Below are positions 14,926 through 50,954 of a stretch of DNA of 64,000 nucleotides, in pieces. The stretch's first letter is position 1. Each line of letters begins with the position of its first letter. The DNA is from Nitrospirota bacterium (lineage in GTDB: Bacteria > Nitrospirota > UBA9217), in assembly GCA_963751455.1 (NCBI GenBank), contig CAVVUN010000006.1:128001-192000 (forward strand), in the 5' to 3' direction. The notes under the pieces are model-generated. The model was not told where the DNA came from. It searched no databases and was given only the letters and a program-made list of their open reading frames with translations. The translations under genes and the position numbers were made by a program.

Positions 14926-14975
14926 ATTCTATAGGTTTCCTGCAATCTGTTGTACTACCCGTTTGGGCAGGTAGT
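14926..14975 (-). promoter_or_regulatory. Regulon box 1 and -10 (TAGAAT)
   Basis: ACTACCCGTTTGGGCAG at 14954-14970; minus-strand -10 at 14926-14931, 22-bp spacing. Confidence 0.7.
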
Positions 14976-20974: not shown

Positions 20975-21019
20975 ATTATAGCCAAGGCTTGCGAAGCAGA
21001 GTACTACCCGAATAGGTAG
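20975..21019 (-). promoter_or_regulatory. Regulon box 2 and -10 (TATAAT)
   Basis: ACTACCCGAATAGGTAG at 21003-21019; TATAAT at 20975-20980 (minus), 22-bp spacing. Confidence 0.65.
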
Positions 21020-31127: not shown

Positions 31128-31149
31128 AATTGAGATTTCCTCTCTCTTA

Positions 31150-31453
31150 CAGTCGCAGGTCCGTAGAGGACATCCCGGTATCCGGCAATTTCCGCTTCAG
31201 TGCGGTTCGCAGGCGCGGTTTTTTCCTCCACGAGTTCCTCGATCCTTTTGATGTCGGCGGTGATTCCTTCAAGGCGGTTGGAGGATTCTGAGCTTTGAAT
31301 CATCGCCGCCCGCCTGAGGTTTTCGAGCATTTCAGGGGCCTGATTCCGGTAAAGATCCTGCTTGCCCCGGTATTCGCCGATCTGCCTGATGGCCGTAATA
31401 AGGCGATGCAGAATCGTCAAAGTCTCGATATAATTTTTCTCAAATGATTTCAT
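31150..31453 (-). pseudogene. Fic-family protein, N-terminal fragment
   Basis: I.EY.GKQ.L...Q.PE.L..L...A.IQS.ESSNR.EGI..R.E.EIAGYRDVL, truncated before the Fic motif. Confidence 0.75.
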
Positions 31454-31518
31454 GGCACTCGTTCTGCTGCACCTTCGATCGGGGGGGCAGAGGTAATTTT
31501 GGTTTACCGTCCTCCGTA

Positions 31519-31920
31519 TCATTTAATGAACTGCCTTGGATTATCGGTTGAGGCAATGTTAATCCGATACTTCAAGCCCTCAAGCTCTTCAAGGTGCGCG
31601 TTCACAATCATTTTTTTTGCAGCAGGGAACAGGTCCAATTTCTTCTTGATAAGAATCCGCATATCATGAATAAGATTCTCCTCATCATCAATACCCGGAT
31701 TCAGACGCTTATATTCTTCTACAAAGCGTCGAAGGGCTTCATCGCGCTGATGCTCCGGCAAAATTGCAATATTCCAGGCTGTGCAGGCGCCGTTGAGATA
31801 GCTTTGGCAATCCTCAGTCGTATCGCCCATAGAGATATAATCAGACGCCATTTGTGTTAACATCTGGGATATTGTTAAGGCAGGGGGAATACGATGAGTC
31901 TTTTTTTTAATCTTCTTCAT
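31519..31920 (-). CDS. Hypothetical protein
   Basis: AC.AWNIA..P...R and LI..K..LFP pattern. Confidence 0.65.
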   Translation of the reverse strand: MKKIKKKTHRIPPALTISQMLTQMASDYISMGDTTEDCQSYLNGACTAWNIAILPEHQRDEALRRFVEEYKRLNPGIDDEENLIHDMRILIKKKLDLFPAAKKMIVNAHLEELEGLKYRINIASTDNPRQFIK

Positions 31921-31929
31921 CCGCGATCC

Positions 31930-32577
31930 TCAGTATGCCTCATACGCTTTATAGGCGATTGCGAGAAATTCTCCTAACTGGTTCGCTGACAGATACCCCG
32001 CGCCCGCATAGTTGTACAGTTCCATGTTGGCGTCGATGACCTTCGCAACGCGGTCATGGACCCGGCTCAGGTCATAAAGCCCCCAGCTTTCGCCGTTGCC
32101 CGCATTGAAAGTGATTTGATAGAAATCCTCCTCGCTTCCCGTCAGCATGCTCTTGCCGACCATGAGCCTCGGCGGGTTTCCCGCGAAGCGGGAGTTGCTC
32201 AGAATATCGAACACCACCTGCGGATCGTTTTCGCGGGACAGCAGGAGAAAATATTCGCTTTCCATCATCCAACGCTCCGGGGTGAGGCGTAGCGTTCCGC
32301 GAAAAAAGGCGCGAGCGCCGTTCAACATCATGAACATTAGGCTTCTCTCAAGCGCGTAACTCAATTCCAACTCGGTTTTCGGGACGTCCGGTGAATAGTT
32401 ATATCCGCTCTTTTCAAGGCGCTTGCGGATAGCAGGCCAAAATTCGTTCAAGAGCAACTCGTCAAGATGCTTTCGTTCATCCGGATTTTGCAGAATAACA
32501 ATGCCTTTGCCGTCATCGTCGGCCTTTTCCGCTTCCGCGAGCACCCAGCTTCTTTTACTCTTTCTCATGCGGGTCAT
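31930..32577 (-). CDS. Hypothetical protein
   Basis: Long ORF overlapping the mazF stop (ATGA). Confidence 0.6.
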   Translation of the reverse strand: MTRMRKSKRSWVLAEAEKADDDGKGIVILQNPDERKHLDELLLNEFWPAIRKRLEKSGYNYSPDVPKTELELSYALERSLMFMMLNGARAFFRGTLRLTPERWMMESEYFLLLSRENDPQVVFDILSNSRFAGNPPRLMVGKSMLTGSEEDFYQITFNAGNGESWGLYDLSRVHDRVAKVIDANMELYNYAGAGYLSANQLGEFLAIAYKAYEAY

Positions 32578-32933
32578 TTCGCCGCCCCCCTGTCCTGCAC
32601 CCATTCGGATATCTTTTGCTTTATCCGCGTCAATCGCTGCTCCTCGACTTGCCCCAATTTCCCTAGAAGGATTTCCTCGTTCACGACCGCGAGTCTGCTG
32701 ATTCTCAAGATGCTCGGCATTTTCAGGCCCGATGACTCGAAATCCGCGTCATCACGAGTAATGGGCTCGTCAAAACCTGCAATTCCCTGTTCAAGCTGGG
32801 AAGATACCATGCATATAAGCCAGTCGTCGTATTGACCGGGAAGCCTTCTCAGTACAAGGGCAGGGCGTAATTTCCCCACTGCCTGATCGGTCTGAGGAAA
32901 ACGAAAAAGAACTATCTGGCCCTCGACAATCAT
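32574..32933 (-). CDS. mazF: PemK/MazF family toxin
   Basis: G.IVL..FP.TD...GK.RPALV; SGLK..S..R. Confidence 0.88.
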   Translation of the reverse strand: MIVEGQIVLFRFPQTDQAVGKLRPALVLRRLPGQYDDWLICMVSSQLEQGIAGFDEPITRDDADFESSGLKMPSILRISRLAVVNEEILLGKLGQVEEQRLTRIKQKISEWVQDRGAAK

Positions 32934-33133
32934 GAAAAGGACTCCTTTAGATCAGAAAGAGAGTACGGCGCTGGTTCCTCTGCAATACCGCGCATTGCGA
33001 ATGACAGCGATAAGGTTGACCACTCCTGCTCTTCCGTCTTCGACCTCAGATATTCTACGAAATCCAGAACCGCGGCTTTTTTCGTTTCCGGCAATTCATG
33101 AACAGAACGTATGATTCTCTCTTCCAGTGTCAT
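32930..33133 (-). CDS. DUF2281-type antitoxin
   Basis: LPE.....VLDFVEYL..K; overlaps the toxin start. Confidence 0.75.
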   Translation of the reverse strand: MTLEERIIRSVHELPETKKAAVLDFVEYLRSKTEEQEWSTLSLSFAMRGIAEEPAPYSLSDLKESFS

Positions 33134-33279
33134 ATCGCAATTCCTCCTCATCTGCCACCTAATTCCATCGTCCGTCGTTCCGCTTTCTCTATTTCTCGAA
33201 TCGGATACCCGGTTATCGTCCGTATGCTTCCCGAATGATCAATAAACGCTAAATGATCGCTTTGATTTGACCATGAAGC

Positions 33280-33740
33280 TTACCTCATCTGCCCCGTACT
33301 CCTCTTTCTTTTCCTCGAGCCCTTTCCATCTATTTTTTCCCTGAATAAGCCGTAATGTCGCTTGATCCGCGCGATATAGTTAGGATCGCGCAGGAACAGC
33401 TCACGCGCCAATTCGAGAATGGCCGGCGCCTTAGCCGTGTGCGGACTGCCCATGTTCAGAATAGGCCCTTTTAGTTCCGCTACGGTATGCGGATCGGCAT
33501 TGCTGAGCCATTTGGCTCCTCCCAACCCCAGGCAATTACCGTTTCCACATCTTTTCGGACGGAGGATACGACATACCAGAATACCCTCCGGCAATCGCAT
33601 CCTTGCTCGTTGCAGAACATTTCATGATAATAATAATTGCCCGGCGGCAATCCGGCATCCGCATGATCCATCACGGTTATGCAGAGCGTTTCCCGTTCGG
33701 CAAGGTCCGGGAACAGGTCGTGAAACATCTGAAAAGGCAT
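33280..33740 (-). CDS. Hypothetical Cys-motif protein (frameshifted)
   Basis: FPDLAE.ET..; EMFC....CDCRRV; YI.R.KRHY..FR across two frames. Confidence 0.6.
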
Positions 33741-33784
33741 GGGGCTAAATTTCCTTTCGATGCATTTTCCTCGCGAGCTTACAG

Positions 33785-34198
33785 TCACAAATACACGGCG
33801 CCGATCTCGAAGGCTTGCTCGGGAGTGCCGAACCATTCGCCGTTCGGAAAACAGCACGGTTCGTAGCGCATGTTGCTGTAGGTGAAAAACGCGACGCTCC
33901 ACCGATCAATGCTGAAATGCCGCAGCCGGACAAGGTGCGTCGGCGTGTTTAGCAGCCGTTCAATGAACTCCTTGCGGGTCTCGCCGAAGCTTGCAGGGAG
34001 ACGCCTCGGGACGTTCTCCGGCTCCTTGTACGCGTCGATATAGCACATTGCGCCTCTAAATCTGACGTCGATGCGAATGAACTTGCCCGCATAATGCTTA
34101 TGTGCATGGGTGACGATGCGTGTCCGCACCGCGTTCTGTGTGGCGGGCGAGACCTTGACCCCGCCTGCATGGGGAACCTGCATCCACATTTTTCTCAT
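33785..34198 (-). CDS. Hypothetical protein
   Basis: RFRG..CYIDAY; THL.RLR.F...WS.AF.TYS...YEP. Confidence 0.7.
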   Translation of the reverse strand: MRKMWMQVPHAGGVKVSPATQNAVRTRIVTHAHKHYAGKFIRIDVRFRGAMCYIDAYKEPENVPRRLPASFGETRKEFIERLLNTPTHLVRLRHFSIDRWSVAFFTYSNMRYEPCCFPNGEWFGTPEQAFEIGAVYL

Positions 34199-34325
34199 CG
34201 AATTCCCTCAGTTTTTTCAGGACGATTTATTACCCTTGATCTCAATAGTGTAATATCGCCATCCTTATTACACTATTGCCTTATGCTTCATTCCGAAATT
34301 TATCGGCAAAAAGAATTCCAGCAAC

Positions 34326-34832
34326 TCACAATCTCAAATCCGTGGGATAATGGACCGCAATCTCCGTTACCCCATGAAATGCCTTATCACTCGACACGAG
34401 CACATCGGCCTTGAGCCTCAGCGCCACCGCCAGCACTACCGCGTCATTCGTGAGAAAAACGTACTTCTCCTGCATCTTGAACGCGGTCTTCGTGAGGTCT
34501 TCCAACGTGCAGGCCGCGAACCCAAGCCCAAGGTCCACAAGCGCGTTCATTTTGGCCCGGTAGAGACTCAGGCCTTTGATGACCTCTGGTTTTGAGTCCA
34601 GACGCAGAGCTGGTTTTCCCTCCGCAATGAGTCCTTTCATCATTGCCTCTGCGAGCATGAGCTTGTGCGTCAACTCCTGCCAGACCGTCTGCGGCAGAAT
34701 ACCGGAAAGCTCGCCTTGGGCGCAGCGCCGGATAAATCTCTGGGCCTGGACTGAAGAGCCTTGCTCCGCATAGAGCAGCACATTCGTATCGATCACGCAA
34801 AGGCTGCCGCTCGGGATGTCGTCAAGATTCAT
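34326..34832 (-). CDS. vapC: PIN domain toxin
   Basis: IDTN.L.Y; E..HKLM.AEA; LTNDA; S.D.AF. Confidence 0.85.
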   Translation of the reverse strand: MNLDDIPSGSLCVIDTNVLLYAEQGSSVQAQRFIRRCAQGELSGILPQTVWQELTHKLMLAEAMMKGLIAEGKPALRLDSKPEVIKGLSLYRAKMNALVDLGLGFAACTLEDLTKTAFKMQEKYVFLTNDAVVLAVALRLKADVLVSSDKAFHGVTEIAVHYPTDLRL

Positions 34833-35071
34833 AGATCCCACGCATCCTCCTCCAGAACCGCCTTGAACTGCGCAGAGGTCAGCTTCATCGGGCGATCGCA
34901 AAAGAGTTGATACGCCGCGTCACGCTTTGCAGGCTCGACAGCTCGTGTTGACAAGTAGTTTTCAATGGCGTCCTGGATCAGATCGCTTAAGGGACGGCCT
35001 TCATCAACCGCCCTGCGCTTGGCTTTGCGCAAAACATCTTCCTCAAGTAGCGTCCCGACTTTTCGTTTCAT
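34829..35071 (-). CDS. RHH-like antitoxin
   Basis: K.GT.L.E...R.AK.RA..EGR.LSD.IQ.A; overlaps vapC. Confidence 0.75.
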   Translation of the reverse strand: MKRKVGTLLEEDVLRKAKRRAVDEGRPLSDLIQDAIENYLSTRAVEPAKRDAAYQLFCDRPMKLTSAQFKAVLEEDAWDL

Positions 35072-36382: not shown

Positions 36383-37105
36383 TTAAATCTCGGGCTCCCA
36401 GCTGAGGTCGCCCGCCATTTCCCACTGAACAAAATTTCTGATCACCTGTCTCGCGTCTTCAGGCATATCATTAAAACGGAGGCCCATGCCCGGTTCGAAT
36501 TCAATCCTGCCTTCGAGGCGGGCGGTCCTGACCACAACTGCTTCCAGTTTTATCGTTGTTACGTCATGGGGCAAACTGTACCTGATATGCAGGATTGTGC
36601 CTTCGGGGAGCGGAATCGGGGTCCGAAGATACATTCCTCCCTCAGAAAGATTTATGCAGGTAAGTTCATCTTCAGGAGCGCCTTCCTCGATCGTTACCCT
36701 GAACTTGACGGAAATTCTTGGATCGTTTCTCGGTTCCTTGCAAAGACGGCCGAGAACACGGAAAGCGAGCGCAACGTCAACCGGTTTTGCAATGATCGCA
36801 GCGCACCCCGAGGAGATTAATCTTTCTTTTTTTTCCGTATTTTCCTCGGCAGTGAAAAGTACGAGGGGGAAATCCTTCACTGCCGGATCACGTCTGAGCA
36901 GAGAAATCGATTTCTGAAGAGCCTGCCCGGGCAGGTCGCCGTCAAGGATTATCAGCTCGAACCTGTTTTCCCCGGCAAGAACGACAGCCTCTTCCGCCGT
37001 TTTTGCCAGTATCGGTTTGTACCAAAGCCGCTTCATCAGAATACTTAGATCCATCTGGCCGTAAGCGGTGTGACAGACTATCAAAACAGTTTTTCCCGTA
37101 AACAT
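36383..37105 (-). CDS. Pseudo-receiver plus PilZ domain protein (c-di-GMP effector)
   Basis: REC-like N-terminus (IILD, KP) lacking the acidic pocket; PilZ R..PR and NLSEGG motifs. Confidence 0.85.
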   Translation of the reverse strand: MFTGKTVLIVCHTAYGQMDLSILMKRLWYKPILAKTAEEAVVLAGENRFELIILDGDLPGQALQKSISLLRRDPAVKDFPLVLFTAEENTEKKERLISSGCAAIIAKPVDVALAFRVLGRLCKEPRNDPRISVKFRVTIEEGAPEDELTCINLSEGGMYLRTPIPLPEGTILHIRYSLPHDVTTIKLEAVVVRTARLEGRIEFEPGMGLRFNDMPEDARQVIRNFVQWEMAGDLSWEPEI

Positions 37106-37130
37106 TCAGGCTTCTGTCCTTTCCTGTTTT

Positions 37131-40100
37131 CTATGCCTCATAGCCAAGCTGCCGTATAAAGAGCGCTGCTATACTCGGGTCAAAATCCACTTCGCTCTTA
37201 TCTCTTAAATACTGCATTACGTTCTCTTTACTCCATGCGGGACGGTATGGCCGGTCGGAGCTTAATGCGTCCCAGACATCTACAACCGAAAAGATACGCG
37301 CTGCAAGCGGTATTTTTTCTCCTTTAAGTCCTTCAGGATACCCGGTCCCGTCCCATTTTTCATGATGACGTAAGGGTATATCGAGCGCAGGCCGTAAAAA
37401 AGCGATCGGCGAGAGAAGATCGTGCGCAAAAACAGGGTGCTTTCGCATTATGATCCATTCCTCTTCCGAGAGCTTCCCCGGCTTCAGAAGAATATGGTCG
37501 GGAATTCCCATTTTCCCGATGTCATGCAGGAGCGATCCTCTCCGGATGTGGACAAGCATATCCTCTCTTGTACCCATCTCACGGGCGATCTTTACGGTCA
37601 TGTCCGTGACCCTCCGGGAATGCCCTTCCGTTTCCTTGTCGCGCAGATCGAGCGCCCGGGACCAACCTTCGATGGTTGCATCGTATGCAAGGGCGAGTTC
37701 GTCATTGGCATGCTGTAAATCGCCGAAGAGCGAAGCCATATCTATCGCAATCGCCGCCTGCTGTGCCAATGCTTCGAAAAATTCGAGCCACGGCTTATCA
37801 GGCGTCAGGGGTCTCCGGTTTAAGACTTCGAGAACACCCTTCACCTGCCCTTTGATGACGAGCGGTGCAACATGATGGGAAACAAACCTTTCTCCCGTGA
37901 GCTGGCTCACATGGGCGCACATGGTGTGACCGGGAACGGCCTCTGGTACGCTGACCACGGTCCGTTCAAGCGCTGCGCGTCCAGCGCATCCCTCGCCCAG
38001 TTTTATTCTTGACTGTTCGATGTCCCGGGTCCGGAACCCGTGACCTGCGGCGTACGTCAGAGTGCGTGAATGAGGATTGAGCAGAAGTACAGCTGCCGCG
38101 TCGGCCTGAAGTTCCTTTGAAACGTGGGCAAGCAGCACGTTCAGCGTTACTCGCATATCCAGGCTGGAGCTGATCGCAATATCGATCTCATGCAGGGCCT
38201 GCAGGTGGTGCATCTGCTGCAAAGCCTGCTCGTGAAGGGTCAAACGGCGTACTGCAATGGCCGCAATTTCTCCGATCGCCGTTAGCAGCCTCACCCCCTC
38301 TTGCTTGATCGTCTTCCTGCATCCGATCATGATCGCGCCTATCGTCCTTTCTTCAGCAATCAGCGGAACGCATGCAACGGAGTTCAGTTTGTTGATCGCT
38401 TCCGGCCGGACTATCCGGGAGTCGTTCAAAAAATCGTCGCTCGAATAGGCTTTGCCGCCGGTGATAACGTGTCCCAGTACGCCTTCACCCGGCGGCAACC
38501 GGCGTCCCGTCCATTCGCTCAACTCGCCCCAACCCAACTCGACGAGGGTTTCTCCGGTAGCCGGTTCGAGAATGCCTATTGCGGCAGCCTCAATATCCAG
38601 AGACTCTACCGTATGAACCAGGATCAAGGGAAACTGATCCGCACGCGTGGAAGCCGACCGCAAGGCAATGCTTAACCGCGAAATCGATTCCAGTTCGCGC
38701 TCGCGCTGTTTCCGGTTCGTGATGTTATCGAATACCGCGATAAAACGCTGCTTTTCAGTGCTGTACGCGGAGACGGACAACCATGTTTCGAGGGGATCCA
38801 GGTATATTTCAAACTTTTCCCCCTTGCCGGTCAACGACACCCTGCCGTAAATTTCAAACAATTGCGGATAGGCCTCGCGTATACCCGGTATCACTTCGGT
38901 CACTTTTTTCCCGATCACGTTCGTCAGCCCGGTCAATCCTTCGAAGGCGGCGTTGACCTCGATATAGACGAAGTCCTTCGGCCGGCCGTCTTCAAAAAGC
39001 ATCTGACAATAAGCAAATCCCTCGAGCATGTTATCGAAGAGCGAGTGATAGCGATTTTCGCTCGCGCGCAATGTTTTTTCGCTCTGAATTCGGGTGGCAA
39101 TTTCGGACTCGAGTTCTTCCTTCGCGACAACAGCCTGCTCGGTGAATCGCTTGGTTTCACTCGTCCGCTTCATGATCGAAAGAATGTAGGCCGTCAATAG
39201 ACCTGTGATAACAAGCCCGCCTCCCAGCACGTCCCACGAATGACCGTACCGTCGACCGGCCAGGTACCCGGGTGCGGGAGTGGCAAGAAAAGTCCATTTT
39301 CTGCCTGCTATTTCGATTGTTTTGTCGTAATGCACCCCTTTCCGAAGGAAAGCTCTTTCATCGCCCGCATTGTCTGAAAGGGGAGTTCGAATCGACGGAG
39401 GATATGCATACAACAGGCGACTGTCTTGCTGCGAGGTCTCATCGTAGAGACGGATTGCGATATTTTGCCGGTCGAGATAAGACAAATATTTCTCTATCAG
39501 GCCGTTAATCGAGAAAACGCCCGCCACGTAGCCGCTCAAACGTTCACGACGGGCTTCCAGCGAATCAGGAACGGCTCCTTCCCCGTAGAGTGGGTGAAAA
39601 ACAGTAAACAAGAAACCCGCGTCAACCTTCTGAACCAGTGTCGATCCGGAAATGACAACCATCGTCCCGTTATCGCTGGATTTTTGCAGCGCATCTCGAC
39701 GAGTCGGATCAGAGGCGATATCGAAACCGAACGCTGCCTTGTTATCTGAATAGGGCTCGACGAAATAAGCGGGAAAGTATTCGCGGCGCTTTCCTGCCCG
39801 CGTCATGCCCCCCTGTGCCTTGAGTTCCGTGAGCTCAAACCCGGGCAGCCCCTCCTGCCTTGCTGCCGACTCATATCCGGCTCTCCGGGAATACGGCACG
39901 CGGGGAACCCACGCTAAAGCCTGTACCGCGGGATTATGCCGCATAAATGGCTGAACAAAGGCGTGAAACTCCTTCCGGGTGATCATGTCGGCATGGACAT
40001 AAAAAGCAGCGAGGGCTTCCATCTGTTGGAGGCTTTCCTCGATGCCTATCCGCAATGCTTCAATCAGTTCATCCGACTTGCTGTTGAATTCCAACTGGAG

Positions 40101-40271
40101 GCGGTCTCGGCGGTCATTACGGGAGAGAATAAACAGCGCAACGGATATCGCCACTCCCAAACAAACAACCAGCACTAACAGGACGTATTGATGTCTAAAG
40201 AGTTTATTGAATATGCCGGGAGTTTTGCCGGTCAAGCCGGTTTTACTATTTTGGCTCTTTCTGAAGTCCAT
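37131..40271 (-). CDS. CHASE-PAS-GAF-GAF-HD-GYP cyclic-dinucleotide phosphodiesterase
   Basis: CHASE (W.PRV, EP...N..A.GFD); D.ET.GHS.RV, LHDIGK, HHEKWDGTGYP, VDVWDAL.SDRPYR. Confidence 0.93.
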   Translation of the reverse strand: MDFRKSQNSKTGLTGKTPGIFNKLFRHQYVLLVLVVCLGVAISVALFILSRNDRRDRLQLEFNSKSDELIEALRIGIEESLQQMEALAAFYVHADMITRKEFHAFVQPFMRHNPAVQALAWVPRVPYSRRAGYESAARQEGLPGFELTELKAQGGMTRAGKRREYFPAYFVEPYSDNKAAFGFDIASDPTRRDALQKSSDNGTMVVISGSTLVQKVDAGFLFTVFHPLYGEGAVPDSLEARRERLSGYVAGVFSINGLIEKYLSYLDRQNIAIRLYDETSQQDSRLLYAYPPSIRTPLSDNAGDERAFLRKGVHYDKTIEIAGRKWTFLATPAPGYLAGRRYGHSWDVLGGGLVITGLLTAYILSIMKRTSETKRFTEQAVVAKEELESEIATRIQSEKTLRASENRYHSLFDNMLEGFAYCQMLFEDGRPKDFVYIEVNAAFEGLTGLTNVIGKKVTEVIPGIREAYPQLFEIYGRVSLTGKGEKFEIYLDPLETWLSVSAYSTEKQRFIAVFDNITNRKQRERELESISRLSIALRSASTRADQFPLILVHTVESLDIEAAAIGILEPATGETLVELGWGELSEWTGRRLPPGEGVLGHVITGGKAYSSDDFLNDSRIVRPEAINKLNSVACVPLIAEERTIGAIMIGCRKTIKQEGVRLLTAIGEIAAIAVRRLTLHEQALQQMHHLQALHEIDIAISSSLDMRVTLNVLLAHVSKELQADAAAVLLLNPHSRTLTYAAGHGFRTRDIEQSRIKLGEGCAGRAALERTVVSVPEAVPGHTMCAHVSQLTGERFVSHHVAPLVIKGQVKGVLEVLNRRPLTPDKPWLEFFEALAQQAAIAIDMASLFGDLQHANDELALAYDATIEGWSRALDLRDKETEGHSRRVTDMTVKIAREMGTREDMLVHIRRGSLLHDIGKMGIPDHILLKPGKLSEEEWIIMRKHPVFAHDLLSPIAFLRPALDIPLRHHEKWDGTGYPEGLKGEKIPLAARIFSVVDVWDALSSDRPYRPAWSKENVMQYLRDKSEVDFDPSIAALFIRQLGYEA

Positions 40272-40389
40272 ATTTCTTCTCCTTAATGTCATCCGTGGAA
40301 CGGCGGAACCGAAAGTGAAAGCGGCCAATTGTAGGGTCCCGGCTGAGCATTCTCGGATAGAACAAAATGCTGAATAATCGCTATTTTCT

Positions 40390-40439
40390 ATTTTAATGAT
40401 TTTCTGCAACTTTGTTTACTACCCGTTCGGGCAGGCAGT
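40390..40439 (-). promoter_or_regulatory. Regulon box 3 and -10 (TAAAAT)
   Basis: ACTACCCGTTCGGGCAG at 40418-40434; -10 at 40390-40395 (minus), 22-bp spacing. Confidence 0.7.
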
Positions 40440-40522
40440 TTTTTTGGTAATTACAAGGAATTTTGGTGAGAATGGGAATACGCGGATGGGGGTACTTTCG
40501 AAAGTATAAGCGCTGCCGGATC

Positions 40523-41350
40523 TTACAGTTGGATCAAGTTGTGTTCGAGCGCAGCCATAATGGCCTGCGACCGGTTCGCGACGTTCAGTTTCTGAAATAT
40601 GTTCTTCAAATGGAATTTGACGGTGTCCTGTGTGATCTCCAGGATGGAGGCTATCTCCCAGTTGTTCTTTCCCTCCTTGACCCAGACGAGTATCTCCTTT
40701 TCGCGGACCGTAAGGGAAACAGTTTCACTCTTGTCGTTTAACACGCGGTTCAGCTGGGGGACGACGACCTCCAGGATCGCATTCTGGCACTCGACCTCGG
40801 CGGCCTTTACCGTGATATGCAGCTGCGTGGCAATGGCTTTGAGGTCCTTGTCCTCTGCAAGCAACCCGAGGACCTCACGCTGGTTTTTATCGATCCGCTC
40901 CGGAATCTTCAGCTCCTTCTGCCGCAGACGCGCGGCGTACTCCTTGATCAGGACCCCGGCTACCCGGTTGCTGAGATAGCCCCCTCCGGCGGACACGCGG
41001 TTGATCGCGCTGATCACTTCCCGGAACGCGCAGTCCTTGAGCAGATAGCCCACTGCCCCTGCCTTGAGCATTTCGAGCACCATGCGCTTGTCCAGGTGCA
41101 TCGAGAGCGCGATCACCTTGACGGCGGGATTTGCGGCCTTGATCCGGCTGGTCGCGTCGATCCCGTTCACCCCGGGCATCGAGATGTCCATGATGACGAT
41201 GTCGGGGCGCAGTTTTCCCGAAAGCTCGATCGCCGCTTCGCCGTCCTCGGCCTCGGCTAAGACCCTCATGTGCGTCTGCTCGGCGATCAGCATTCTCAGC
41301 CCCTCGCGCAGCAGCTTATGATCGTCGGCAAGAAGTATCCGTATATCCAC
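40523..41350 (-). CDS. NarL-type response regulator with two LuxR-type HTH domains
   Basis: LADDH, MDISMP, GYLLK; degenerate HTH, then LTVREKEILVWVKEGKNNWEIASIL..TVKFHLKN..KL.V.NR.QA. Confidence 0.9.
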   Translation of the reverse strand: MDIRILLADDHKLLREGLRMLIAEQTHMRVLAEAEDGEAAIELSGKLRPDIVIMDISMPGVNGIDATSRIKAANPAVKVIALSMHLDKRMVLEMLKAGAVGYLLKDCAFREVISAINRVSAGGGYLSNRVAGVLIKEYAARLRQKELKIPERIDKNQREVLGLLAEDKDLKAIATQLHITVKAAEVECQNAILEVVVPQLNRVLNDKSETVSLTVREKEILVWVKEGKNNWEIASILEITQDTVKFHLKNIFQKLNVANRSQAIMAALEHNLIQL

Positions 41351-41403
41351 AGAGCCCCCCTCTATTCCGGGTCTTTTCCTTTAAGGAGCTTCAGGAAGTG
41401 CAA

Positions 41404-41686
41404 GATCCTTGTTTTTTTTCTGCACCGCGGTTCTCATCGCCGCGCAGACATGCCAGTTATATTTCTATTTTACTTGTCGCTACAGCCGCCCATAGCGCTA
41501 ATTGCTACGCATAGCCTGCATTCGCGCTTGGCACTCATAACCGCTGGCCACAAGCCGCGCAGGCAAGATTCGTGATTTACCGATCTTGCTGCCAGGCATG
41601 TAAAGCACGGACGCTGCTCACGCCCTACTCTCGCGCTGCGCACTCGAAGTCGTTGGGTGCAGGCGGGATGCAGGGGTGTCGGGAAA
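41404..41686 (+). repeat. Repeat family C, copy C, with two nested micro-elements
   Basis: Same ends as copies A and B; insertions at 41514-41564 and 41623-41663. Confidence 0.75.
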
Positions 41687-41709
41687 TACCAAACAAAGGC
41701 ACACGATTC

Positions 41710-43571
41710 TCAATTTTCTTTTCCCTGCAGCGGCGCGGTCAGCACTACCCTGGTCCCCCGGCCCGGGGCGCTCTCGATCGCGCAGGCAGCCGCCCAATCG
41801 TTTCAGCCGCTCCTGTACCAGAAAAACCCGAACCCGCTGACCTTGCCCGCGTTCATGTCCGCGTCGAAACCCGTGCCGTTGTCCTCGACGGCAATGTTGA
41901 TCAGCCGGCCTTTGGCGGAGACAGAGATGCGCACCTCCGTCAGCCCGGGAATGCTTGACCGCGTTCAGGAGCAGCTCCCGCACGCACCGGAACAGGAGAT
42001 AGCGCGTTTCTCCCTGCACCTGCTTGGACTCGCCGTCATCTTCGACTCTGATCAGTATTCCGTGGGTCCTCTGAAAGGCCTCGGCCAGCGCATCAAGGGC
42101 GGGTTTGAAGCCAAGCTCGGTCAGGATCGGCGGATTCAGCTCGATCGTCAGGGAGCGGGTGTACTGAATGGTCTGCTCCAGCGTCTCTCCGATCGTCCCC
42201 AGGATCCGCTGCGTCTCGGGGCGGCGGCAGCATTTGCTGGAGTCTTCCGACCATGAAGGTCATGACCGCCAGGTTCTGCCCGACATAATCGTGCAGGTCC
42301 GAAGCGATCAGGTGCCGCTCCCGCTCCTCCACGCGCGACTCGAGGGCGGACATTTCCGAGGCAACCGAGAACAACTGATTCTGGTAGAGCCGGATCTTCT
42401 CTTCCATCCCCCTGCGCTCCGTCTGGTCCCGGGCGATCACGAGCGCAGCCCTGCTGCCGTTGAACGGGAAAAGGGCGATCGCTATCTCTGCCTCGACCGG
42501 CGGACCCGTCCAGCTGGCGGTACCGGACGCTGGAGAGGGGCAATGGCGGCCCCTTCCTCCTCGACCTGCAGGAGGCGCGCTTCCATCATGGACCGGCAGC
42601 TCTCATCGATGAAGTCCGCGGCCGGCCTTCCCATCACCTGCAGCGGATCGTCAGCGCCCAGCGAGCTTTAACCCGGAAGGGTTGACGAAAACGATGCGGT
42701 CCTGATGCTGCACGTAAGATGGCGTCGGGAGAGAGCTCCACCAGGCGGCGATACCGCTCCTCGCTCTCCCGAAGGGAACGCTCCGCCTCGCTGCGCGCGC
42801 GCACCATTTCGTTAAAGCTCGCGGCAAGGTTCCCTACCTCGTCAACCGGTTTCGACGGGTACGGGCTCGACCGGAAGCCCCATGCCCAGGGCTTTCACCT
42901 TGTCGGTAAGGTTCACGAGGGGGGCGATTACCTTGCGAATGGCGAAATAAATAAGCGTCGTGCTCAGCAAGAATGAAGATAACCGTAATCAGCACGTTCT
43001 GCTTTATGACCGAAACGATCTCCTGGTGGTAGCTTTCCTTGCTCAGCACGATCCGGGCATAGCCGATCACCTTCGGGTGATGGCCCTTTCCCTTCATGCC
43101 GAAATAGAGCGATTCGTCACGGGCGCCGCCTGAGTCGAGCAGTACTGGCTTGATCAGCTCCAGGGTTTCGGATGTTTCCCGGACCGCGGGAAAGCGCTCC
43201 TCTTCTCCGTACTTCGGCTCCGGGGGCCGCCATTCGTCGAGCGCGGGTTGTCCTTTCCGCTCTTCGTGGATCTTCCGGAACCGGTTGTTATAGATGGATA
43301 CTGCGATGACATCGTGGAGACTGAGGATGTCCCGGGCCGCCTCCCGCAGCATTTTGGGGTTCTCGGCGAAGACCCCCAGCATGGAACTGCGGGACAGGAG
43401 TTCGACCAGCATTTCTCCCTGCTCCCGGAGGCCGGTCTTGGTCTTGTCCTCTTCGCGAAGCACGGCAAAAACGGTAAATACGGACAGCACGACGATGATG
43501 ATGCCGATGAACGCAGACAGCATCTTGACGCCCAGGCTTTTCCGCAGCGCATGGCCGATCTTCCTAGTCAA
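41710..43571 (-). CDS. Membrane HAMP/PAS HisKA_3 (NarX-type) sensor kinase, several frameshifts
   Basis: TM-periplasmic-TM; EERER..IA.DLHD.VGQ.L; FRCVRELL.NAVKHS; G.G F and S.PG.GT.V boxes. Confidence 0.8.
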
Positions 43572-44488
43572 TCCCTTTCACCCTCCGCATGGTCTCATCC
43601 GTGATCGCAAGCCCCATTTTCGCGGCCACGTTCCTGTTTACGGTGAGAAGCGACGTTCGGGCATACTCGCGGACGGAGCCCGATCCCGTTTTCAATCTGT
43701 TCGCCAACTCGCCGACCTGCACCCCGATATCATAGGGATCGAGGTCAAGGGAGGCCACGGCGCCCATGTCCACATATTTTCGGGAAAAGGTGAAGATGGG
43801 AACTGCCCGCTGAAAGGAAAAACGAAGCAGCAGATCGACATTCTCCGTGGTGACCACACTCGGGTCCGGCAGCATCCAGAAGATGTCGATCCTGTCCTGC
43901 ATGGCGGAGAGCGCTGCCGGCAGCCTGGAAGGATCATGGATCTGCTGGGAAATCAGTTCGAGTCCCGCAGCCCGCGCAGCCTTCACGGCGTCTTCAAAAA
44001 AGGCTCCGGTATTCCGGGGATCGTAGATCACGCCGATCCTTTTCTTGCCCGGGAAAATGTCGTGCATGGCTGCCAGATGGCTTGCCGGCGAAACATCCAT
44101 GCTTATACCGGATATATTCGGTCCCTGGCAGCTGAAGGGCTTCGGAAGGGATTGCCATTGCGTAGATGAGGGGAAGGGTCCTGATCTCTTTCAGCTTCTT
44201 CAGGCCAAGCGTGCCGACCGTGATGACGATGTCAGGCGATTTCGCCAGCACCCTTTCAGGCCCGTCATCGTCGCGAAGCGTCAATTCCCGCACAGAGCAA
44301 TTACACGCGTCCCTCAGCCCGCGCACGACTTCGAGGTGGGGCTGCAGCTGGGCGCTTCTGACCACGACCACACGGCACGGCTCGGCTGCGATAGCAGGAA
44401 TGGAAACTCCGACCACGAGCACAGCGACGAACAGCGCGATCGAACGAACCGTATGGGGGAACTGTGATAGTGATGAGAGTACCATCAT
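43564..44488 (-). CDS. ABC_sub_bind-type periplasmic binding protein with no ABC transporter (frameshift near 44120)
   Basis: Signal peptide; RIGV.YDP, D..WMLPD.SV, G.Q...LA...L, L.VN..A..MG. Confidence 0.8.
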
Positions 44489-44565
44489 TCCGTCTTGGGT
44501 TTGGCCTCTGCGGAAGCGACCGTTGAACGAGCATGATGGCGCTCCCCGGCGTCCGCGCCGCGACA

Positions 44566-44762
44566 TGAATCCCGCGCCTTGGAATCCCCCGGCTCCAGCC
44601 GGAGGAAAGCGCTTACTCGCGCCTGGCACGCATAAAGTCGCGTAGGCGAGAGTAAGCAGGCCCCACCATGCACTCGCGCTAGCGCACTCGTAAACACTTG
44701 GTGCAGGCGGGAGGTCGCGTTGTTTGAGGGAGCCCCCGGCTCCTGCCTGGAGGAGGCTCCAC
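44566..44762 (-). repeat. Repeat family D with nested insertions
   Basis: Reverse complement matches 49521-49629, plus a 41-bp element and an extra hairpin. Confidence 0.65.
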
Positions 44763-44781
44763 TCGATCCGGAGTTATCCTT

Positions 44782-46076
44782 CTACAGGCCGAATTCCAGG
44801 TCCTGCGCGACGAACGGGCCCAGCGTCCTGTCGAAGTATTCTTTCTGGCAATTGAGGCCTTCCATGGTCCCGGACCTCAACAACTGCATGTACCTGCAGC
44901 CGCCGAAGCAGAGCGGCAGATAGCTGCATTCCAGGCATCGGTCGTTCTTCCAGGAATCCAGCCCGTGCGAGGCCCGGTACTCCCGCACCCCGGTCCTCAC
45001 GTCGCCTACGCAGCACTCTTTCCTGCCGATCAGGCCCGGACATTTGTACAGCGTGCCGTCGTAGTTCACGACAAAGCTGTCCCGGAAGTCGAGCAGACAG
45101 GGAGAGGGCAAGACCTTCGGGGCGCGGTAGCCCCGTTTCAGCACCTCTCTGCGCAGGAAGAGCGCGGCCTCGCTGATCCACGGCTCGTTATTGGAGGTGC
45201 AGCCGTCGTGAAAATCCGGCGTCCCGAACTCGCTGCTTTCCTGCAAAACCGGGTCGAACTTGACGACCGGGACCTTCTGCGGGGTAAGTCCGTTTGCGAT
45301 GAGATGGTCGAGCAGGAGCGGGAACCGGTCATACTCGTCGCGGGTATAATTGCCGCCGATCTGGATACGGATCAGTTCGCGAGACGTCCTTGATGTTCCG
45401 GAGGATGACATCGAACGAGCCAATGCCCGATCGAAAAGGACGGAACCTGTTGTGGATGTCCTCCGGTCCGTCAAGCGTGACCTTGGCGCCCGTCAGTCCG
45501 AGCGGGACCAGTTTCCGGACCACTTCGGGCGTGAGCAGGGTCCCGTTGGTCACGAGCCCGAATTCGTAGCGCAGACCCCTTTCGGCAGCGTACGTGCCGA
45601 GCTTTTCCGAGATGCTCGATGATCCGCGCCGATGCTCAGCAGCGGTTCGCCGCCGTAAAAGGTGACCTCGATGGTCTTCTTCCCGGTCAGGTCCCTGCTT
45701 CTTGACGAAGGCAATGAATGCGTCGGCGGTCTCGTCGGACAGGTACCATTTCCCTTTTCTTTGGCCTTCGAAGCAGTAGGTGCAGGCGAGATTGCAGTCG
45801 AGGTTGAGGACCAGGATGATCCGGACCGACGTATCTGAGAGCGTTCAGTTCGCCGATGTAGCCGAGCATTTCCTGTTTTTCCCGCTCGGGGTCGTCGGTC
45901 ACGAGCCCGAGGCTGCCCAGGGATTCGCGTTCCTCCGGGGAAAGGCGGCCGCTTTCGATGTCTGCGATCAGACCCGAGGGCACGAGGACCGCCGAGGCGT
46001 TGGCGGTCGAGAACAGGACCTGGGAGCCGTCACCCTGCGCGGACGGGAATATTTTCGTATATCGGGACAAATTCAT
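44782..46076 (-). CDS. Radical SAM/SPASM peptide maturase, geopeptide type (several frameshifts)
   Basis: MNLSRYTKIFP N-terminus; LDCNLACTYCFEG (CX3CX2C); FYGGEPL; TNG.LL; VTLDG..IH...R; SPASM C..DG.LYKC..C..C..LP.C.GGC..C. Confidence 0.88.
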
Positions 46077-46107
46077 GAAAATTGTATGAGTCCTTTCAGG
46101 TGGCTGG

Positions 46108-46145
46108 AAAAAAAGGGAGGGAGAGCCTGTTCTGTTCTCCCTCCC
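46108..46145 (-). terminator. Intrinsic terminator/stabilising hairpin between peptide and maturase
   Basis: Minus strand GGGAGGGAGA-loop-TCTCCCTCCC followed by a T tract. Confidence 0.7.
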
Positions 46146-46154
46146 AAGCACTTT

Positions 46155-46256
46155 CTATCTTGAAACGTAAGGAGCGATCGAGCCGTAACAACAGAACATT
46201 GCCGCCACTTCTCTTTTATCCATGCCTCTTTTCAGTACTACGATGCGATTCTGCAT
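46155..46256 (-). CDS. 33-aa RiPP precursor peptide MQNRIVVLKRGMDKREVAAMFCCYGSIAPYVSR (geopeptide-like)
   Basis: Hand translation (below the ORF-track cut-off); purine-rich RBS AAGGGGGGGAG; I.VL..G leader and CC core; directly upstream of the rSAM gene. Confidence 0.8.
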   Translation of the reverse strand: MQNRIVVLKRGMDKREVAAMFCCYGSIAPYVSR

Positions 46257-46294
46257 GTTCTCCCCCCCCTTCTCTTTAGAGTTACATATCGCTC

Positions 46295-48176
46295 TTAAAA
46301 GCTATACCGGATGCCTGCCTCCGACCACCGGCCGGGGTTCTTATACAAGCGCTATCGGCATATTGAGCCCCGTTAAAGATATTGTGAACATCGACAAAGA
46401 GTTCGAGCGAGCTGTCGTCATCGGAATAGAGTGTCCTTGGCAGCATGGACGTCAACGATCATGGCCTTATATTTACCCTCATTGAATGCGTCCGAATTCC
46501 AGTAAATATAATGACCTGTCACGAGCATTTTCAGAGTGGCATCGTCATAGTGAAGTCCGAGGTCATAGGTCCGCTGAGGGGTATTCGGGACCGTCCTGCC
46601 GGTTTCAGCGTCCCTGGTGTTCATGAAGGCAGCTCCTGCTGAAAGGAACGTCAAATGGACAGGCTTGCTCCTCAGTTCGATCTCGAGTCCCTGCCTTCGT
46701 GCCTTGCCTTCGTTCACGGCCATGAACTGGGGCCCGGGCAACATGTTCGTTTACGATCAGATCGGCTAACATCATGCCGGTACACATCCATCTTCAGCCA
46801 TACAAAGGGCACTGCGGTTGTCTCAACGCCTGCCTGGTAGGACTTGACCCGTTCCATCCGCAGGTCCGGGTTCGGCACGGTGAATTGGTTGCCCCCGAAG
46901 GTTGCCGAGAGCGGAGGAACATTGAAGCCGCGGGCAGCATAGGTCCGGAGAAGAACGGTATCGAGCGGCTTGTAGGTCATACCGAGACTCGGGCTGTTGA
47001 AATCTCCGTTCGTATCGGTCTCGTCATGCCGGATGCCGGGTGTGAACGAGAACCGGTTGACGGTGATCGTATCGTTCAGGTAGAAGGCGTGCTTTCTCTG
47101 AAAATGCTCCCTGCCGGCCAGCGTGCTCGATTCCAGTTTTCTTGAATCCGCATCCGCACCGAGGACGACGTTGTGTTCCTGCCGCTTCCAGACCAGTTTT
47201 GCGCTCGAGCCGTATCCCGTGTCCTCGTAATAGTCATGCGAAAGTTGAGAACCGGTGCTTGCCTGGTAATTGTAGTAATCGTAGTCCTGACGAATATTCC
47301 AGAAACCGAGATTGAACGTCGTCTCCTTGCTGATCGCCGAGTTCAGCGAAAGGCTCGATCGTACTGTTTCAGTCTTGTTGTCGACGAACAGGTCATAGTC
47401 CGGGATCTCCACGACGCCCCTGTCGAACCGGTCTATAGCTTGTGCTGAACAGGACCTGGGTGGAGTTCGTTATGTCGTAGGTGATCTTGCCGAATGCGTT
47501 GTTCCCGGAAAAATCGTTAAGCGGCCTGAATCCATCCGTCTCCAGCCGCCTGGCCGTAAGGTAGTAGCCCACACCGGTCGTCCTTCCCGGACGCTTCCAT
47601 CCTGAAGTCTCCGGTATTGGCCTTGCCGTACGACGCCGACACCATACCGTTCAACTCGTCGCTGCTTCCTGATTTGGTGATGATGTTGATGACGCCGCCG
47701 AGCGCCGAGCCCCAGGCCGAGGAGGCGGGGCCCTTGATGATCTCGATCTTCTCGATGTTCTGGACCGGGACCGACCCGACTTCCGCGACGGTATCGCTCA
47801 GGTTGTTCAGCGGGATGCCGTCCATGAAGACAGCGACGTGCCAGTTCTCGGAGCCCTGGATCAAGGCCTGTGCGATACTGCCCGGCCCTCCGGTCAGGAA
47901 AACCTGGACACCGGTCACCGTGTTCAATACGTCGGCCAGGGTGTGAGCGTTCATCAGTTTTATATCCTGTGCGGTGACGATCGTGACATTTTCCGCGGTT
48001 TGAGTCAGCGACTTCCGGCTTCTCGTTGAAGACTCGACATACAAGTTATCTTCGGTGAAATACATCAGAAGGAATTTATCATCTTCATCGGGTTTGCTGA
48101 GTACGGGACCTGCGAGCGCCAGCTGTACGCCGAGTAAAGCAATTACGAAAGCTGCCAGAATCCTGTGTTTTTTCAT
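46295..48176 (-). CDS. TonB-dependent outer-membrane receptor (several frameshifts)
   Basis: Signal peptide; plug motif IE.IEIIKGP.SS.WG.ALGGVINIITK; NPDL..E...SY..G; C-terminal ..GIRYSF*. Confidence 0.88.
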
Positions 48177-48354
48177 GGCCCTTTCCACCTGTAATGGTTA
48201 ATGAATCTGATAGCAATGCAATTTTATGTATGCAATTACAGGTGGAGTATAAGGAGGGAACCATCCCGTGTCAAGAAATTATCTCCGATCGTCCGGAAAA
48301 TAAACTGCTCTTCGCATGGATCGTGGGAGCCGCCGATATCTCTTAATATGGTTC

Positions 48355-48400
48355 ACTATAGTAAATTGATGCAGAAAATAACACTACCCGTTCGGGTAGT
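48355..48400 (-). promoter_or_regulatory. Regulon box 4 (perfect 7-bp arms) and -10 (TATAGT)
   Basis: ACTACCC-GTTC-GGGTAGT at 48383-48400; -10 at 48355-48360 (minus), 22-bp spacing. Confidence 0.75.
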
Positions 48401-48550
48401 CTGCCCGGGTTATTTTTAATGATGCAGTTTACTTTCCTGTTAAGCCGAAGATCGGTGTCGGTTGCGCAATGTGCGGAAGTTTATGATGTCTTGAATGAAG
48501 TTCCGGGAAGTCAATGATCGTAGGATTCCGGTCTCATGTAGTGCGACCGT

Positions 48551-49363
48551 TCATCTCTTCCGGTAAATTCCCGGACATCCCGGCCAGGGCAGGAACCCGG
48601 CAAAACCGGGAGGCACTGTCTCATGGATTCCCACGACCAGTGCCCCCTGATCGTCGAGTTTATGGTACAATCGGGCCAGAATTTCTTTCTGTAACTCATG
48701 ATCAAAATACGTAAACGCCAGGTTTCTGCACAGAATAAGATGAAACAGTCCCTCTGGTTCCGCTATGCGGACATCCTGTTCAAGAAGGGCCACCTTTTCG
48801 CGTTCCCCTGCCCTGATACAGAAACGGTCTCCCTCGCGGATGAACGCAGTTTTCCAGTCCGGGGGCAGATTTCCGAGACTGCCTGAAGCGTAACAGCCCG
48901 CCTTTGCGCGTTCGATCATGTTCCTGTCCGCGTCGGTAGCGAGGATGGCTATTTTCATAGAAGGGAAGCGGCGGCCCGTGCCGAGGTCCCACAGGACAGC
49001 GAGCGTATACGGCTCCTCGCCGGAAGCGCAGCCGATGCTCCAGCAGCGGAGTTCCGTGCCTCCCTGCGCCATTGCAGCTTCACACAGTCGAACCAGGACA
49101 TCCTTTTCAAGCGATTGAAACACTTCCCGGTCACGATAAAAACGCGAGATCGCAACACGGCATAAGGAGTCGAGAACTTCCCATTCGCTCCTGTTGCCTT
49201 CAAGGAAGGACCGGTACCCGGCTGCATCCGCCAGCCCGAGCGCATGAAGTCGCCCGTCAATCCGATTGCAGACCTGTCCACGAACCTTCCGGAAACCATT
49301 CCACCGCATACGAAGCAGCGGAAGCGACCACTTGAGGAATTGTACGCAATCCTGGTCCCTCAT
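48551..49363 (-). CDS. cheR: CheR-family methyltransferase
   Basis: ISRFYRD, WSIGCASGEEPYT, I.ATD, LILCRN...YF, L.VG..E. Confidence 0.9.
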   Translation of the reverse strand: MRDQDCVQFLKWSLPLLRMRWNGFRKVRGQVCNRIDGRLHALGLADAAGYRSFLEGNRSEWEVLDSLCRVAISRFYRDREVFQSLEKDVLVRLCEAAMAQGGTELRCWSIGCASGEEPYTLAVLWDLGTGRRFPSMKIAILATDADRNMIERAKAGCYASGSLGNLPPDWKTAFIREGDRFCIRAGEREKVALLEQDVRIAEPEGLFHLILCRNLAFTYFDHELQKEILARLYHKLDDQGALVVGIHETVPPGFAGFLPWPGCPGIYRKR

Positions 49364-49520
49364 GACGGGTAATCTCCGGTCTACTTCTGGTATCAATCTT
49401 AGCAAATGGCTTCTGAAACGTGATCGTTTAACGAATCGTAGCAGGGCGGGGCCTCAACACTAAAGGAAGGCGAGGTAGTCTTAAAGGACAGTCCCATTCA
49501 CTACCCTCTTTTTAAACTCA

Positions 49521-50761: not shown

Positions 50762-50787
50762 AGCGGTTCTCCTTAAATAAATTAATC

Positions 50788-50954
50788 GTAACCATTCAGC
50801 TTCTTTTCAGAACGGCATTAAGACAAATCTGAGAAAAAACCCTTCTATCCGCAGATTTCGCAGATTTACGCAGATTTTAACCGGAATTCTGGTTTTGTTT
50901 TTATCTGCGAAATCTGCGTAATCTGCGGATAAAAAAAATGACCTGAATAGTTAC
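50788..50954 (+). mobile_element. MITE family A, copy 2, 8-bp TSD AATTAATC
   Basis: TIR GTAACCATTCAG/CTGAATAGTTAC; TSD at 50780-50787 and 50955-50962. Confidence 0.9.

Follow-up and report, generated by a model that had tools for sequence, protein, structure and literature searches.

Can a diderm bacterium sense a modified peptide that it makes itself? The question is raised by a locus of a Nitrospirota bacterium (GTDB lineage Bacteria; Nitrospirota; UBA9217) in which genes for a TonB-dependent receptor, a small Cys-Cys peptide and a radical S-adenosylmethionine (rSAM) maturase of the SPASM type stand in line with those for a periplasmic binding protein, a histidine kinase and a response regulator. 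The window analyzed here is a stretch of 64,000 nucleotides (nt) from the assembly GCA_963751455.1 (contig CAVVUN010000006.1, positions 128,001 to 192,000 of the forward strand), and the locus occupies its positions 36383 to 48400. Peptide autoinducers are textbook knowledge for Gram-positive bacteria, and we found no description of a general route by which diderms sense their own modified peptides in the open literature searched. A reading made earlier from the sequence alone, hereafter the original prediction, saw in the locus an Agr-like peptide autoinduction loop.

Our data lead us to consider it fairly probable that the cassette is a modified-peptide autoinduction circuit of diderm bacteria. 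In such a circuit, the maturase would cross-link the Cys-Cys core, presumably through a thioether if PapB and the sactipeptide maturases are a guide, and a housekeeping route not encoded at the locus would free a peptide of about 9-12 residues. The TonB receptor would then import the released peptide and the orphan binding protein would present it to the Cache domain of the kinase. Finally, the regulator would bind a palindromic box and activate its own operon together with targets that differ by lineage, and the loop may depend on cell density.

Conservation of the cassette

Pfam and NCBIfam searches of the open reading frames (ORFs) of the window identified the proteins of the locus other than the small peptide. 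As predicted, the eight genes are co-oriented, all on the minus strand, and they follow the predicted order. Their positions, with that of a hairpin inside the operon, are as follows (aa, amino acids; HTH, helix-turn-helix; c-di-GMP, cyclic di-GMP).

46295..48176, minus strand: TonB-dependent receptor of a distinct subfamily, Plug and barrel; 5-7 frameshifts, no in-frame stop
46155..46256, minus strand: precursor peptide, 33 aa; intact, with a conserved leader, Cys-Cys at 22-23 and a 10-residue variable tail
46108..46145, minus strand: GC-rich hairpin and T-run between the peptide and maturase genes
44782..46076, minus strand: radical SAM/SPASM maturase of geopeptides, TIGR04280 family; 85/86 conserved columns, 4 frameshifts
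43564..44488, minus strand: orphan periplasmic binding protein, PF04392; signal-like hydrophobic stretch at the N terminus, 1 frameshift
41722..43571, minus strand: membrane histidine kinase, sCache_4-HAMP-PAS-HisKA_3-HATPase; about 10 frameshifts
40523..41350, minus strand: NarL/LuxR-type response regulator, REC and two HTH domains (REC-GerE); intact
37131..40271, minus strand: CHASE-PAS-GAF-GAF-HD-GYP protein, putative c-di-GMP phosphodiesterase, likely starting at the ATG at 40271; intact
36383..37105, minus strand: REC-PilZ protein; intact

The first five proteins, from receptor to kinase, belong together well beyond this genome. We fetched 101 loci around TIGR04280-like enzymes and kept 96 after dropping 5 duplicates. 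Within about 6.5 kb of the maturase, the receptor was found in 88 of these loci, a CC peptide in 87, the binding protein in 78 and a kinase in 71. Where at least 5 kb of flank was available on both sides (54 loci), all four partners were present in 46, and the remaining eight comprise seven loci without one part and a single one without all four. The linkage persists through rearrangement, since the receptor and binding-protein genes occur in four arrangements, divergent and convergent ones included. The co-occurrence of peptide and rSAM enzyme with receptor, binding protein and kinase, for which a synteny check had been proposed, thus held through rearrangements and in two phyla.

Genome-wide profiles agree with the synteny. 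Among 301 genomes of the bacterium's own phylum, the receptor subfamily (E<=1e-110) was detected in 37, 31 of which also carry a TIGR04280 match (E<=1e-60); two of the other six are 68-74% complete and four are 98-100% complete. In the second phylum (251 genomes), all 20 genomes with an above-cut-off maturase have the receptor, and a TIGR04280-like enzyme occurs in 24 of the 26 receptor-positive ones; two genomes, reported with this second profile, hold two of each. Related genomes are not independent, and we claim no p-value for this co-occurrence. A metagenome receptor scan covering 1/64 parts returned 79 loci, including seven above 600 bits, of which six had an adjoining maturase and one had the binding protein and kinase only. 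The closest relatives of the window maturase were found in Nitrospirota records, and the cassette is also present in cultured Geobacteraceae (Geomonas, Geotalea and Geomesophilobacter records, and Pelobacter propionicus).

The maturase and its peptides

TIGR04280 is the best family for the rSAM pieces of the window, which score 287.5, 159.2 and 55.8 bits against a whole-protein cut-off of 400, the copy being fragmented. The enzyme has the CX3CX2C motif and SPASM cysteines of rSAM/SPASM maturases of peptides made by the ribosome and modified after translation (RiPPs), adjoins a short precursor and matches TIGR04085 at 50.3 bits (cut-off 27). Weaker matches, all below cut-off, link it to PapB (E 1e-40), CefB (4e-52) and SCIFF maturases (6e-27).

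The 33-aa peptide was matched by none of the library models searched, TIGR04229 (cut-off 30 bits) included. Against a profile built from 88 relatives, with the window peptide itself excluded, it scored 40.7 bits (E 4e-11 among the 5268 candidate ORFs of the genome). One other ORF of the genome scored similarly, the peptide of a second cassette described below, which is itself part of the profile. TIGR04229 matches 27 of 80 aligned peptides at E<=0.05; judged by their sequences, the peptides gathered here belong to the same broader family, of which the TIGR04229 model is a narrower description.

The leader pattern I-x-V-L-x-x-G is present in 61 of the 88 peptides, with CC 8-12 residues further on. 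Tails measure 7-10 residues in 78 of the 88 and fall into two types, hydrophobic and small-polar, and 87 distinct tails were counted. A CC-type motif served to select the peptides, which by itself accounts in part for the constancy of CC; peptide position, leader motif and the clustering of tail lengths were only loosely constrained by the search. In eight loci (L041, L045, L048, L076, L080, L089, L106 and L108) the leader of the precursor carries long Lys/Ala-rich repeat extensions (up to 81 aa).

The 70-nt segment with the hairpin between the peptide and maturase genes folds at -23.7 kcal/mol, with a median of -23.2 over 88 loci (values without a shuffle control). This hairpin is likely an attenuator or a transcript-stabilizing element.

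Binding protein, receptor and the sister lineage

As predicted, the binding-protein and kinase genes overlap, by 8 nt at the kinase start, and no permease or ATPase gene was found near the binding protein. The sCache_4 and HisKA_3 domains of the kinase were read from window pieces, and HAMP and PAS from the intact relative L047. An intact binding protein gave a confident fold prediction (predicted local distance difference test score, pLDDT, 94). An ABC importer of the TrpX type was considered and rejected: the binding protein scores 64.3 bits against a cut-off of 390 for the TrpX-type family NF041285, and what adjoins it in 51 of the 54 wide loci is a kinase and not a permease or ATPase.

The strongest clue to the ligand is comparative and comes from a sister lineage of 18 loci, namely 17 with a below-cut-off maturase plus L383. 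An orphan binding protein of another family, PF00496 (family 5), occurs in 12 of these loci, and the kinases tested there are of the dCache type. One such protein (L354) was searched against PDB, and its nearest structure was the oligopeptide binder AppA (1xoc, E 6e-74). A CC peptide and a receptor of the same subfamily are retained in four of these loci. That the slot can be filled by an AppA-like protein favors a peptide ligand, without proving signaling.

Eight sister loci (L353-L356, L372, L375, L376 and L378) carry, after the below-cut-off maturase, precursors of 22-29 aa that share the leader type, contain one Cys and end in 5-6 mostly hydrophobic residues. All of them except L356, which lies at a contig end, have the orphan family-5 binding protein and kinase. 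The autoinducer rings of Agr systems resemble such an ending of a Cys and 5-6 hydrophobic residues.

For the receptor, the model of an intact copy from the same genome reached a pLDDT of 93, and a fold search placed it nearest BtuB and Cir, with Cir-MccV (9nn6) and FhuA-MccJ25 (4cu4) also among the matches. Cobalamin uptake of the BtuB type was rejected, as TIGR01779 scores 160.8 bits against a cut-off of 599.7 and no cobalamin riboswitch was matched; indeed, no Rfam family reached its gathering score in the window and four loci. It is a lower-scoring tier of receptors that stands beside FecCD/ABC/TonB genes (L358).

A palindromic box at the -35 position

According to the original prediction, a shared activator box precedes both the receptor and the HD-GYP gene. 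The box, CTRCCCNWWNGGGYAG, proved to be real: the window has four sites with at most one mismatch against 0.09 expected, and none of 100 shuffled windows reached four. Exact sites number three in the whole genome, all inside the window. The sites and associated promoter elements are listed below (MCP, methyl-accepting chemotaxis protein).

48384..48399, minus strand: box before the receptor operon, at the -35 position; -10-like hexamer 23 nt past the box at 48360-48355
48246..48274, minus strand: second sigma-70 promoter by sequence match, near-consensus (11/12), nearer the receptor start
40419..40434, minus strand: box before the HD-GYP gene; -10 element 23 nt downstream
21004..21019, minus strand: box with 1 mismatch and a perfect -10 at the same spacing; faces cysC-chrA-cysQ-sulfotransferase (19767-15334)
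14955..14970, minus strand: box with -10 element, before genes for a REC-kinase, a phosphonate-type binding protein and an MCP (14919-10724)

All four window boxes share the 23-nt geometry. Among the 40 exact boxes of this genome and its relatives, 18 are followed by a -10 hexamer that starts exactly 23 nt beyond the box; offset 23 collects 20 orientation hits, whereas other offsets average 2.1 and reach 6 at most. Such a fixed distance argues that the box replaces the -35 element, as the site of an activator would, and its place before the receptor operon would imply positive feedback. The promoter nearer the receptor start is possibly a basal one. The HD-GYP gene, preceded by a box and a -10 element of its own, is probably transcribed separately.

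The regulator at 40523..41350 probably binds this box, judging from their distribution: the box is present in 8/8 genomes with the closest full-length regulator versus 12/56 other genomes. The same box and spacing are found upstream of the receptor in L044, L052 and L053, and in L222 a box also precedes the receptor but lacks the element at offset 23; in eight examined loci with other regulators, no box was found before the receptor. Consistent with the earlier claim that the regulator induces its own operon, a box of activator geometry precedes the operon in relatives with the same regulator.

In these relatives the boxes again face sulfation and chemotaxis genes. In L044, L052, L053 and L223, as in the window at 10724-21019, they face cysC/sat, a chromate-type transporter, cysQ and a sulfotransferase, and also a phosphonate-type binding protein with an MCP. 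Tandem boxes, two or three between divergent genes, occur in three relatives. Outputs differ by lineage, and in this regulator subfamily would comprise the cysQ/sat-cysC/chrA/sulfotransferase set and binding-protein/MCP/Che genes.

Sulfation of peptide tyrosines by the box-controlled sulfotransferase was tried as an explanation and rejected as a general one. The idea was based on Pro-Tyr in the tails of the five peptides recovered from cassettes with this regulator, and the enzyme has weak matches to protein-tyrosine sulfotransferases (E about 1e-7); it occurs in 22/64 family genomes, many of them without a maturase or with Tyr-free tails.

Several other features surround the boxes in the window. 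A CheR methyltransferase gene (48551-49405) lies directly upstream of the receptor box on the same strand. An island at 21313-35071, with a helicase, a NOV_C protein, PIN-domain and other small toxin-antitoxin-like genes, divides the box regulon into two halves.

The window copy and a second cassette in the same genome

In the assembly, the genes for receptor, maturase, binding protein and kinase, four of the eight, are broken, which was overlooked in the first reading. Frame-aware alignment to intact relatives revealed about 20 frameshifts across 41722-48176; 16 are gains of a single base, and in-frame stops are absent. The copy nevertheless retains 85/86 conserved columns in the maturase, 18/21 in the binding protein and 77/82 in the receptor, the medians for intact relatives being 85, 20 and 78. 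By a coarser method, three module genes of the window have 6 frame switches in about 4 kb, compared with 12 in about 179 kb elsewhere (10/161 other loci). A patch of error in the assembly consensus is the likelier cause of these frameshifts.

Broken maturases were also observed beside intact receptor, peptide, binding-protein and kinase genes in L349 (genome G226) and L351 (genome G206). The former has two single-base losses and a stop, possibly a real loss of production, and the latter has gain-biased shifts and no stop, resembling the window copy.

The same genome carries an intact paralogous cassette, likewise overlooked before, on contig C1 (locus L009, G000:C1:425146-433313). It encodes a receptor of 605 aa, a peptide of 30 aa, a maturase of 430 aa, a binding protein, a hybrid kinase and two regulators, and it is without the palindromic box. 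Its maturase belongs to TIGR04280 (574.7 bits, cut-off 400). Its peptide has a leader similar to that of the window peptide and a different tail, and scores 12.3 bits against TIGR04229 (cut-off 30). This cassette is a better object for experiments than the broken window copy.

The G+C content reaches 58-62% over positions 41000-46000 (region 40200-48700 of the window), against about 51% genome-wide, which suggests acquisition or strong codon bias. A repeat element at about 41382-41700 separates the kinase from the regulator. It is one of several dispersed repeats resembling miniature inverted-repeat transposable elements, the others lying at 17700-17924, 19780-20005, 5327-5495, 50787-50937 and 57145-57310; those at 17700-17924 and 19780-20005 break up the sulfation genes.

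Weighing the autoinduction circuit

A number of results weigh against autoinduction or narrow it. The window copy may be a pseudogene, by recent pseudogenization. The covariation of the peptide core with the receptor or binding protein that the original prediction proposed as a check was not detected. In 54 sets (four multi-copy loci and loci without full-length genes having been dropped), partial Mantel tests controlling for the other two proteins gave r 0.045 (p 0.21) for the binding protein and r 0.033 (p 0.25) for the receptor. Neither tail type nor tail sequence tracks these two proteins better than the maturase. Tail class changes 5 times on the maturase tree, 5 on that of the binding protein and 6 on that of the receptor, and such similar counts mean that linkage alone explains tail class.

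Export and processing raise a further difficulty. The absence of an exporter or protease gene noted in the original prediction stood up to a Pfam search of the 33 other window ORFs, with neither a peptide exporter nor a leader protease among them. No recurrent one was found in the 69 of 107 recurrent neighbor clusters scanned with Pfam, the rest being mostly short or antisense ORFs. The two C39 domains of the genome are unlinked to the cassette; its TonB genes lie elsewhere in the genome. In one clade (L062, L066, L076, L079, L080, L106 and L108) an amidohydrolase and/or a DUF3108 protein follows the cassette, and these would be clade-limited candidates for processing.

Sensor genes also occur on their own. 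Genomes G031, G086, G217 and G244, all 98-100% complete, have receptor, binding protein and kinase (at L176, L341, L177 and L175, respectively) with no above-cut-off maturase and no peptide; these sets are possibly listeners. Many genomes lacking the maturase carry binding protein-kinase pairs, which often adjoin distant receptors and have no peptide with them; 185 of the 301 own-phylum genomes have a profile match at E<=1e-15. By comparison of these sequences, the cassette is a specialized branch of a general receptor/binding-protein/kinase design.

The nearest structures to the binding protein are amino-acid-binding PF04392 proteins at about 20% identity, and the best matches bind single aromatic amino acids, as 3lft binds Trp. 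PMC10805632 describes PF04392-like structures that bind Trp and Phe and single-domain PF04392-like proteins near MCP genes. Structural neighbors that bind amino acids do not, by themselves, indicate a peptide ligand.

On the output side, the regulator and box are also present without the maturase (genomes G115 and G024), which suggests that the regulator was recruited in one subfamily. The c-di-GMP output, once claimed as part of the module, did not survive comparison, as HD-GYP genes lie within 6.5 kb in 6/96 loci and are absent beside the module in five relatives with this regulator. From this distribution, the HD-GYP/PilZ output is a local, genome-specific member of the regulon.

The same observations can be read in other ways. 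A methanobactin-like metallophore, in which the Cys-Cys RiPP chelates a metal, the receptor recovers it and the binding protein with its kinase detects the metal-loaded form and induces uptake, would follow the PfeRS/PfeA type of positive control and predict the same feedback loop. Adjacent cysteines would suit it, as would a receptor fold nearest BtuB and Cir and the inclusion of NikA-type nickel-metallophore binders in binding-protein family 5 (lower matches for the L354 protein). We nevertheless find this explanation unlikely, because tails vary between aromatic and Ser/Ala-rich compositions and share no second ligand, single-Cys precursors occur in the sister lineage, no inner-membrane permease to deliver the metal was found among the neighbors scanned, a Fur-like box lies upstream of 1/76 receptors, and one genome holds two cassettes with different tails. 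A narrow-spectrum microcin or kin-discrimination peptide could instead enter kin through the receptor, with the binding protein and kinase as danger sensor or periplasmic sink; hypervariable tails and the microcin complexes among the fold matches agree with this, microcins being known to enter cells through receptors of this fold, and receptor-only genomes could be engaged in surveillance. Producers, however, keep the receptor beside the peptide (88/96 loci), the neighbor clusters scanned hold no recurrent immunity or exporter gene, and a toxin producer would gain little by inducing its own entry port, so that we regard a microcin as improbable.

The lack of a conserved exporter would be expected if the peptide stayed in the periplasm of its producer as a report on an internal state (Fe-S/SAM supply, anoxia or envelope integrity) and the receptor did no more than recapture leaked peptide, and the established dependence of rSAM activity on Fe-S clusters and reductant fits such a role. 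Tail diversity, two systems per genome, an obligate outer-membrane receptor and sensor sets in non-producers would then be left unexplained, and we give this cell-autonomous reporter little credence. The broad occurrence of binding protein-kinase modules without a maturase, together with the amino-acid ligands of the best-matching PF04392 structures, would also be compatible with a generic sensor of an unrelated small molecule, the peptide-maturase pair being merely co-regulated or the source of a PQQ-like cofactor. Against it stand a specific receptor subfamily that tracks the maturase in two phyla and a linkage that outlasts rearrangement into four gene orders and the exchange of one binding-protein family for another, and a cofactor would require a conserved core and further enzymes; we consider it very improbable. 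It is on these grounds that a modified-peptide autoinduction circuit remains our favored explanation.

Comparison with known systems

The geopeptide families of NCBIfam (TIGR04229 precursor, TIGR04280 maturase) are the same families as those found here. The earlier statement that they have no established function agrees with their records, whose names were given in silico, the maturase being listed as a hypothetical equivalog ('hypoth_equivalog'). These names leave out the receptor, binding protein, kinase, box and feedback. No functional study of the families was found in the open literature searched. PMC11934962 lists the radical SAM protein GSU0884, which may or may not be the maturase and carries no weight here, among those down-regulated in a csrA mutant.

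As a working analogy, the term Agr-like can be kept. Agr quorum sensing is set out in PMC8748961 as the AgrBDCA system, and the cassette shares with it a small Cys-containing precursor whose C-terminal core varies, a histidine kinase with a response regulator, and a presumed autoinduction; the occurrence of two peptide systems in one genome is a further likeness. The particular features of AgrB, AgrC and LytTR are absent. There is no AgrB among the window ORFs or the recurrent neighbors scanned with Pfam, and an rSAM maturase is present instead. Sensing in the diderm host would be indirect, through the TonB receptor and the periplasmic binding protein. The regulator of Agr is of the LytTR type, whereas here a HisKA_3 kinase is paired with a LuxR-type (REC-GerE) regulator in place of AgrC and a LytTR regulator. 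The cassette is real, conserved and functionally unstudied, and it may work like Agr without being a member of that family.

Other parts of the design have parallels elsewhere. In LuxPQ and ChvE-VirA, an orphan binding protein is likewise the co-sensor of a Cache-HAMP kinase, and in PfeA-PfeRS a receptor is induced by its own two-component system; the ligand here would differ in being a modified peptide encoded by a gene of the same operon. In methanobactin operons, too, a RiPP comes together with a TonB importer and a binding protein of the periplasm. They differ in that here an rSAM maturase replaces MbnBC (neither MbnB nor MbnC enzymes were found among the recurrent neighbor clusters scanned), no exporter recurs, the core is variable and the output runs through a kinase.

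Ranthipeptides reportedly take part in clostridial quorum sensing, going by the title of work by Chen et al. from 2020. The cassette resembles systems of rSAM-modified RiPPs (RaS-RiPPs), ranthipeptides and sactipeptides in its rSAM/SPASM maturase, homologous to maturases of the PapB, CefB and ScfB type, and the cross-link is predicted by this analogy. It differs from them in its adjacent Cys-Cys, the lack of a transporter and the dedicated binding protein-kinase sensor. Thioether RaS-RiPPs are reviewed in PMC9389541, which mentions an uncharacterized Parabacteroides cluster with a two-component system, a precursor, a RaS enzyme and a TonB receptor.

Implications

The broader reading is that geopeptides form a widespread, strain-variable quorum-sensing language of diderms, spoken by Nitrospirota, Geobacteraceae and sulfate reducers, with several channels per genome, some listeners and, in places, a rebuilt sensor. 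It would combine a peptide cross-linked by an rSAM enzyme with a TonB importer and with a sensor made of an orphan binding protein and a kinase, under positive feedback, and the rebuilt sensor would consist of the second binding-protein fold with single-Cys cores like those of Agr autoinducing peptides. We rate this reading an even chance. The cultured Geobacteraceae carriers make the cassette testable now, and the box offers a reporter and a predicted regulon of sulfation and chemotaxis genes and, in this genome, c-di-GMP turnover. If the circuit is true, an orphan rSAM family would gain a function, possibly together with a new cross-link chemistry on adjacent cysteines.

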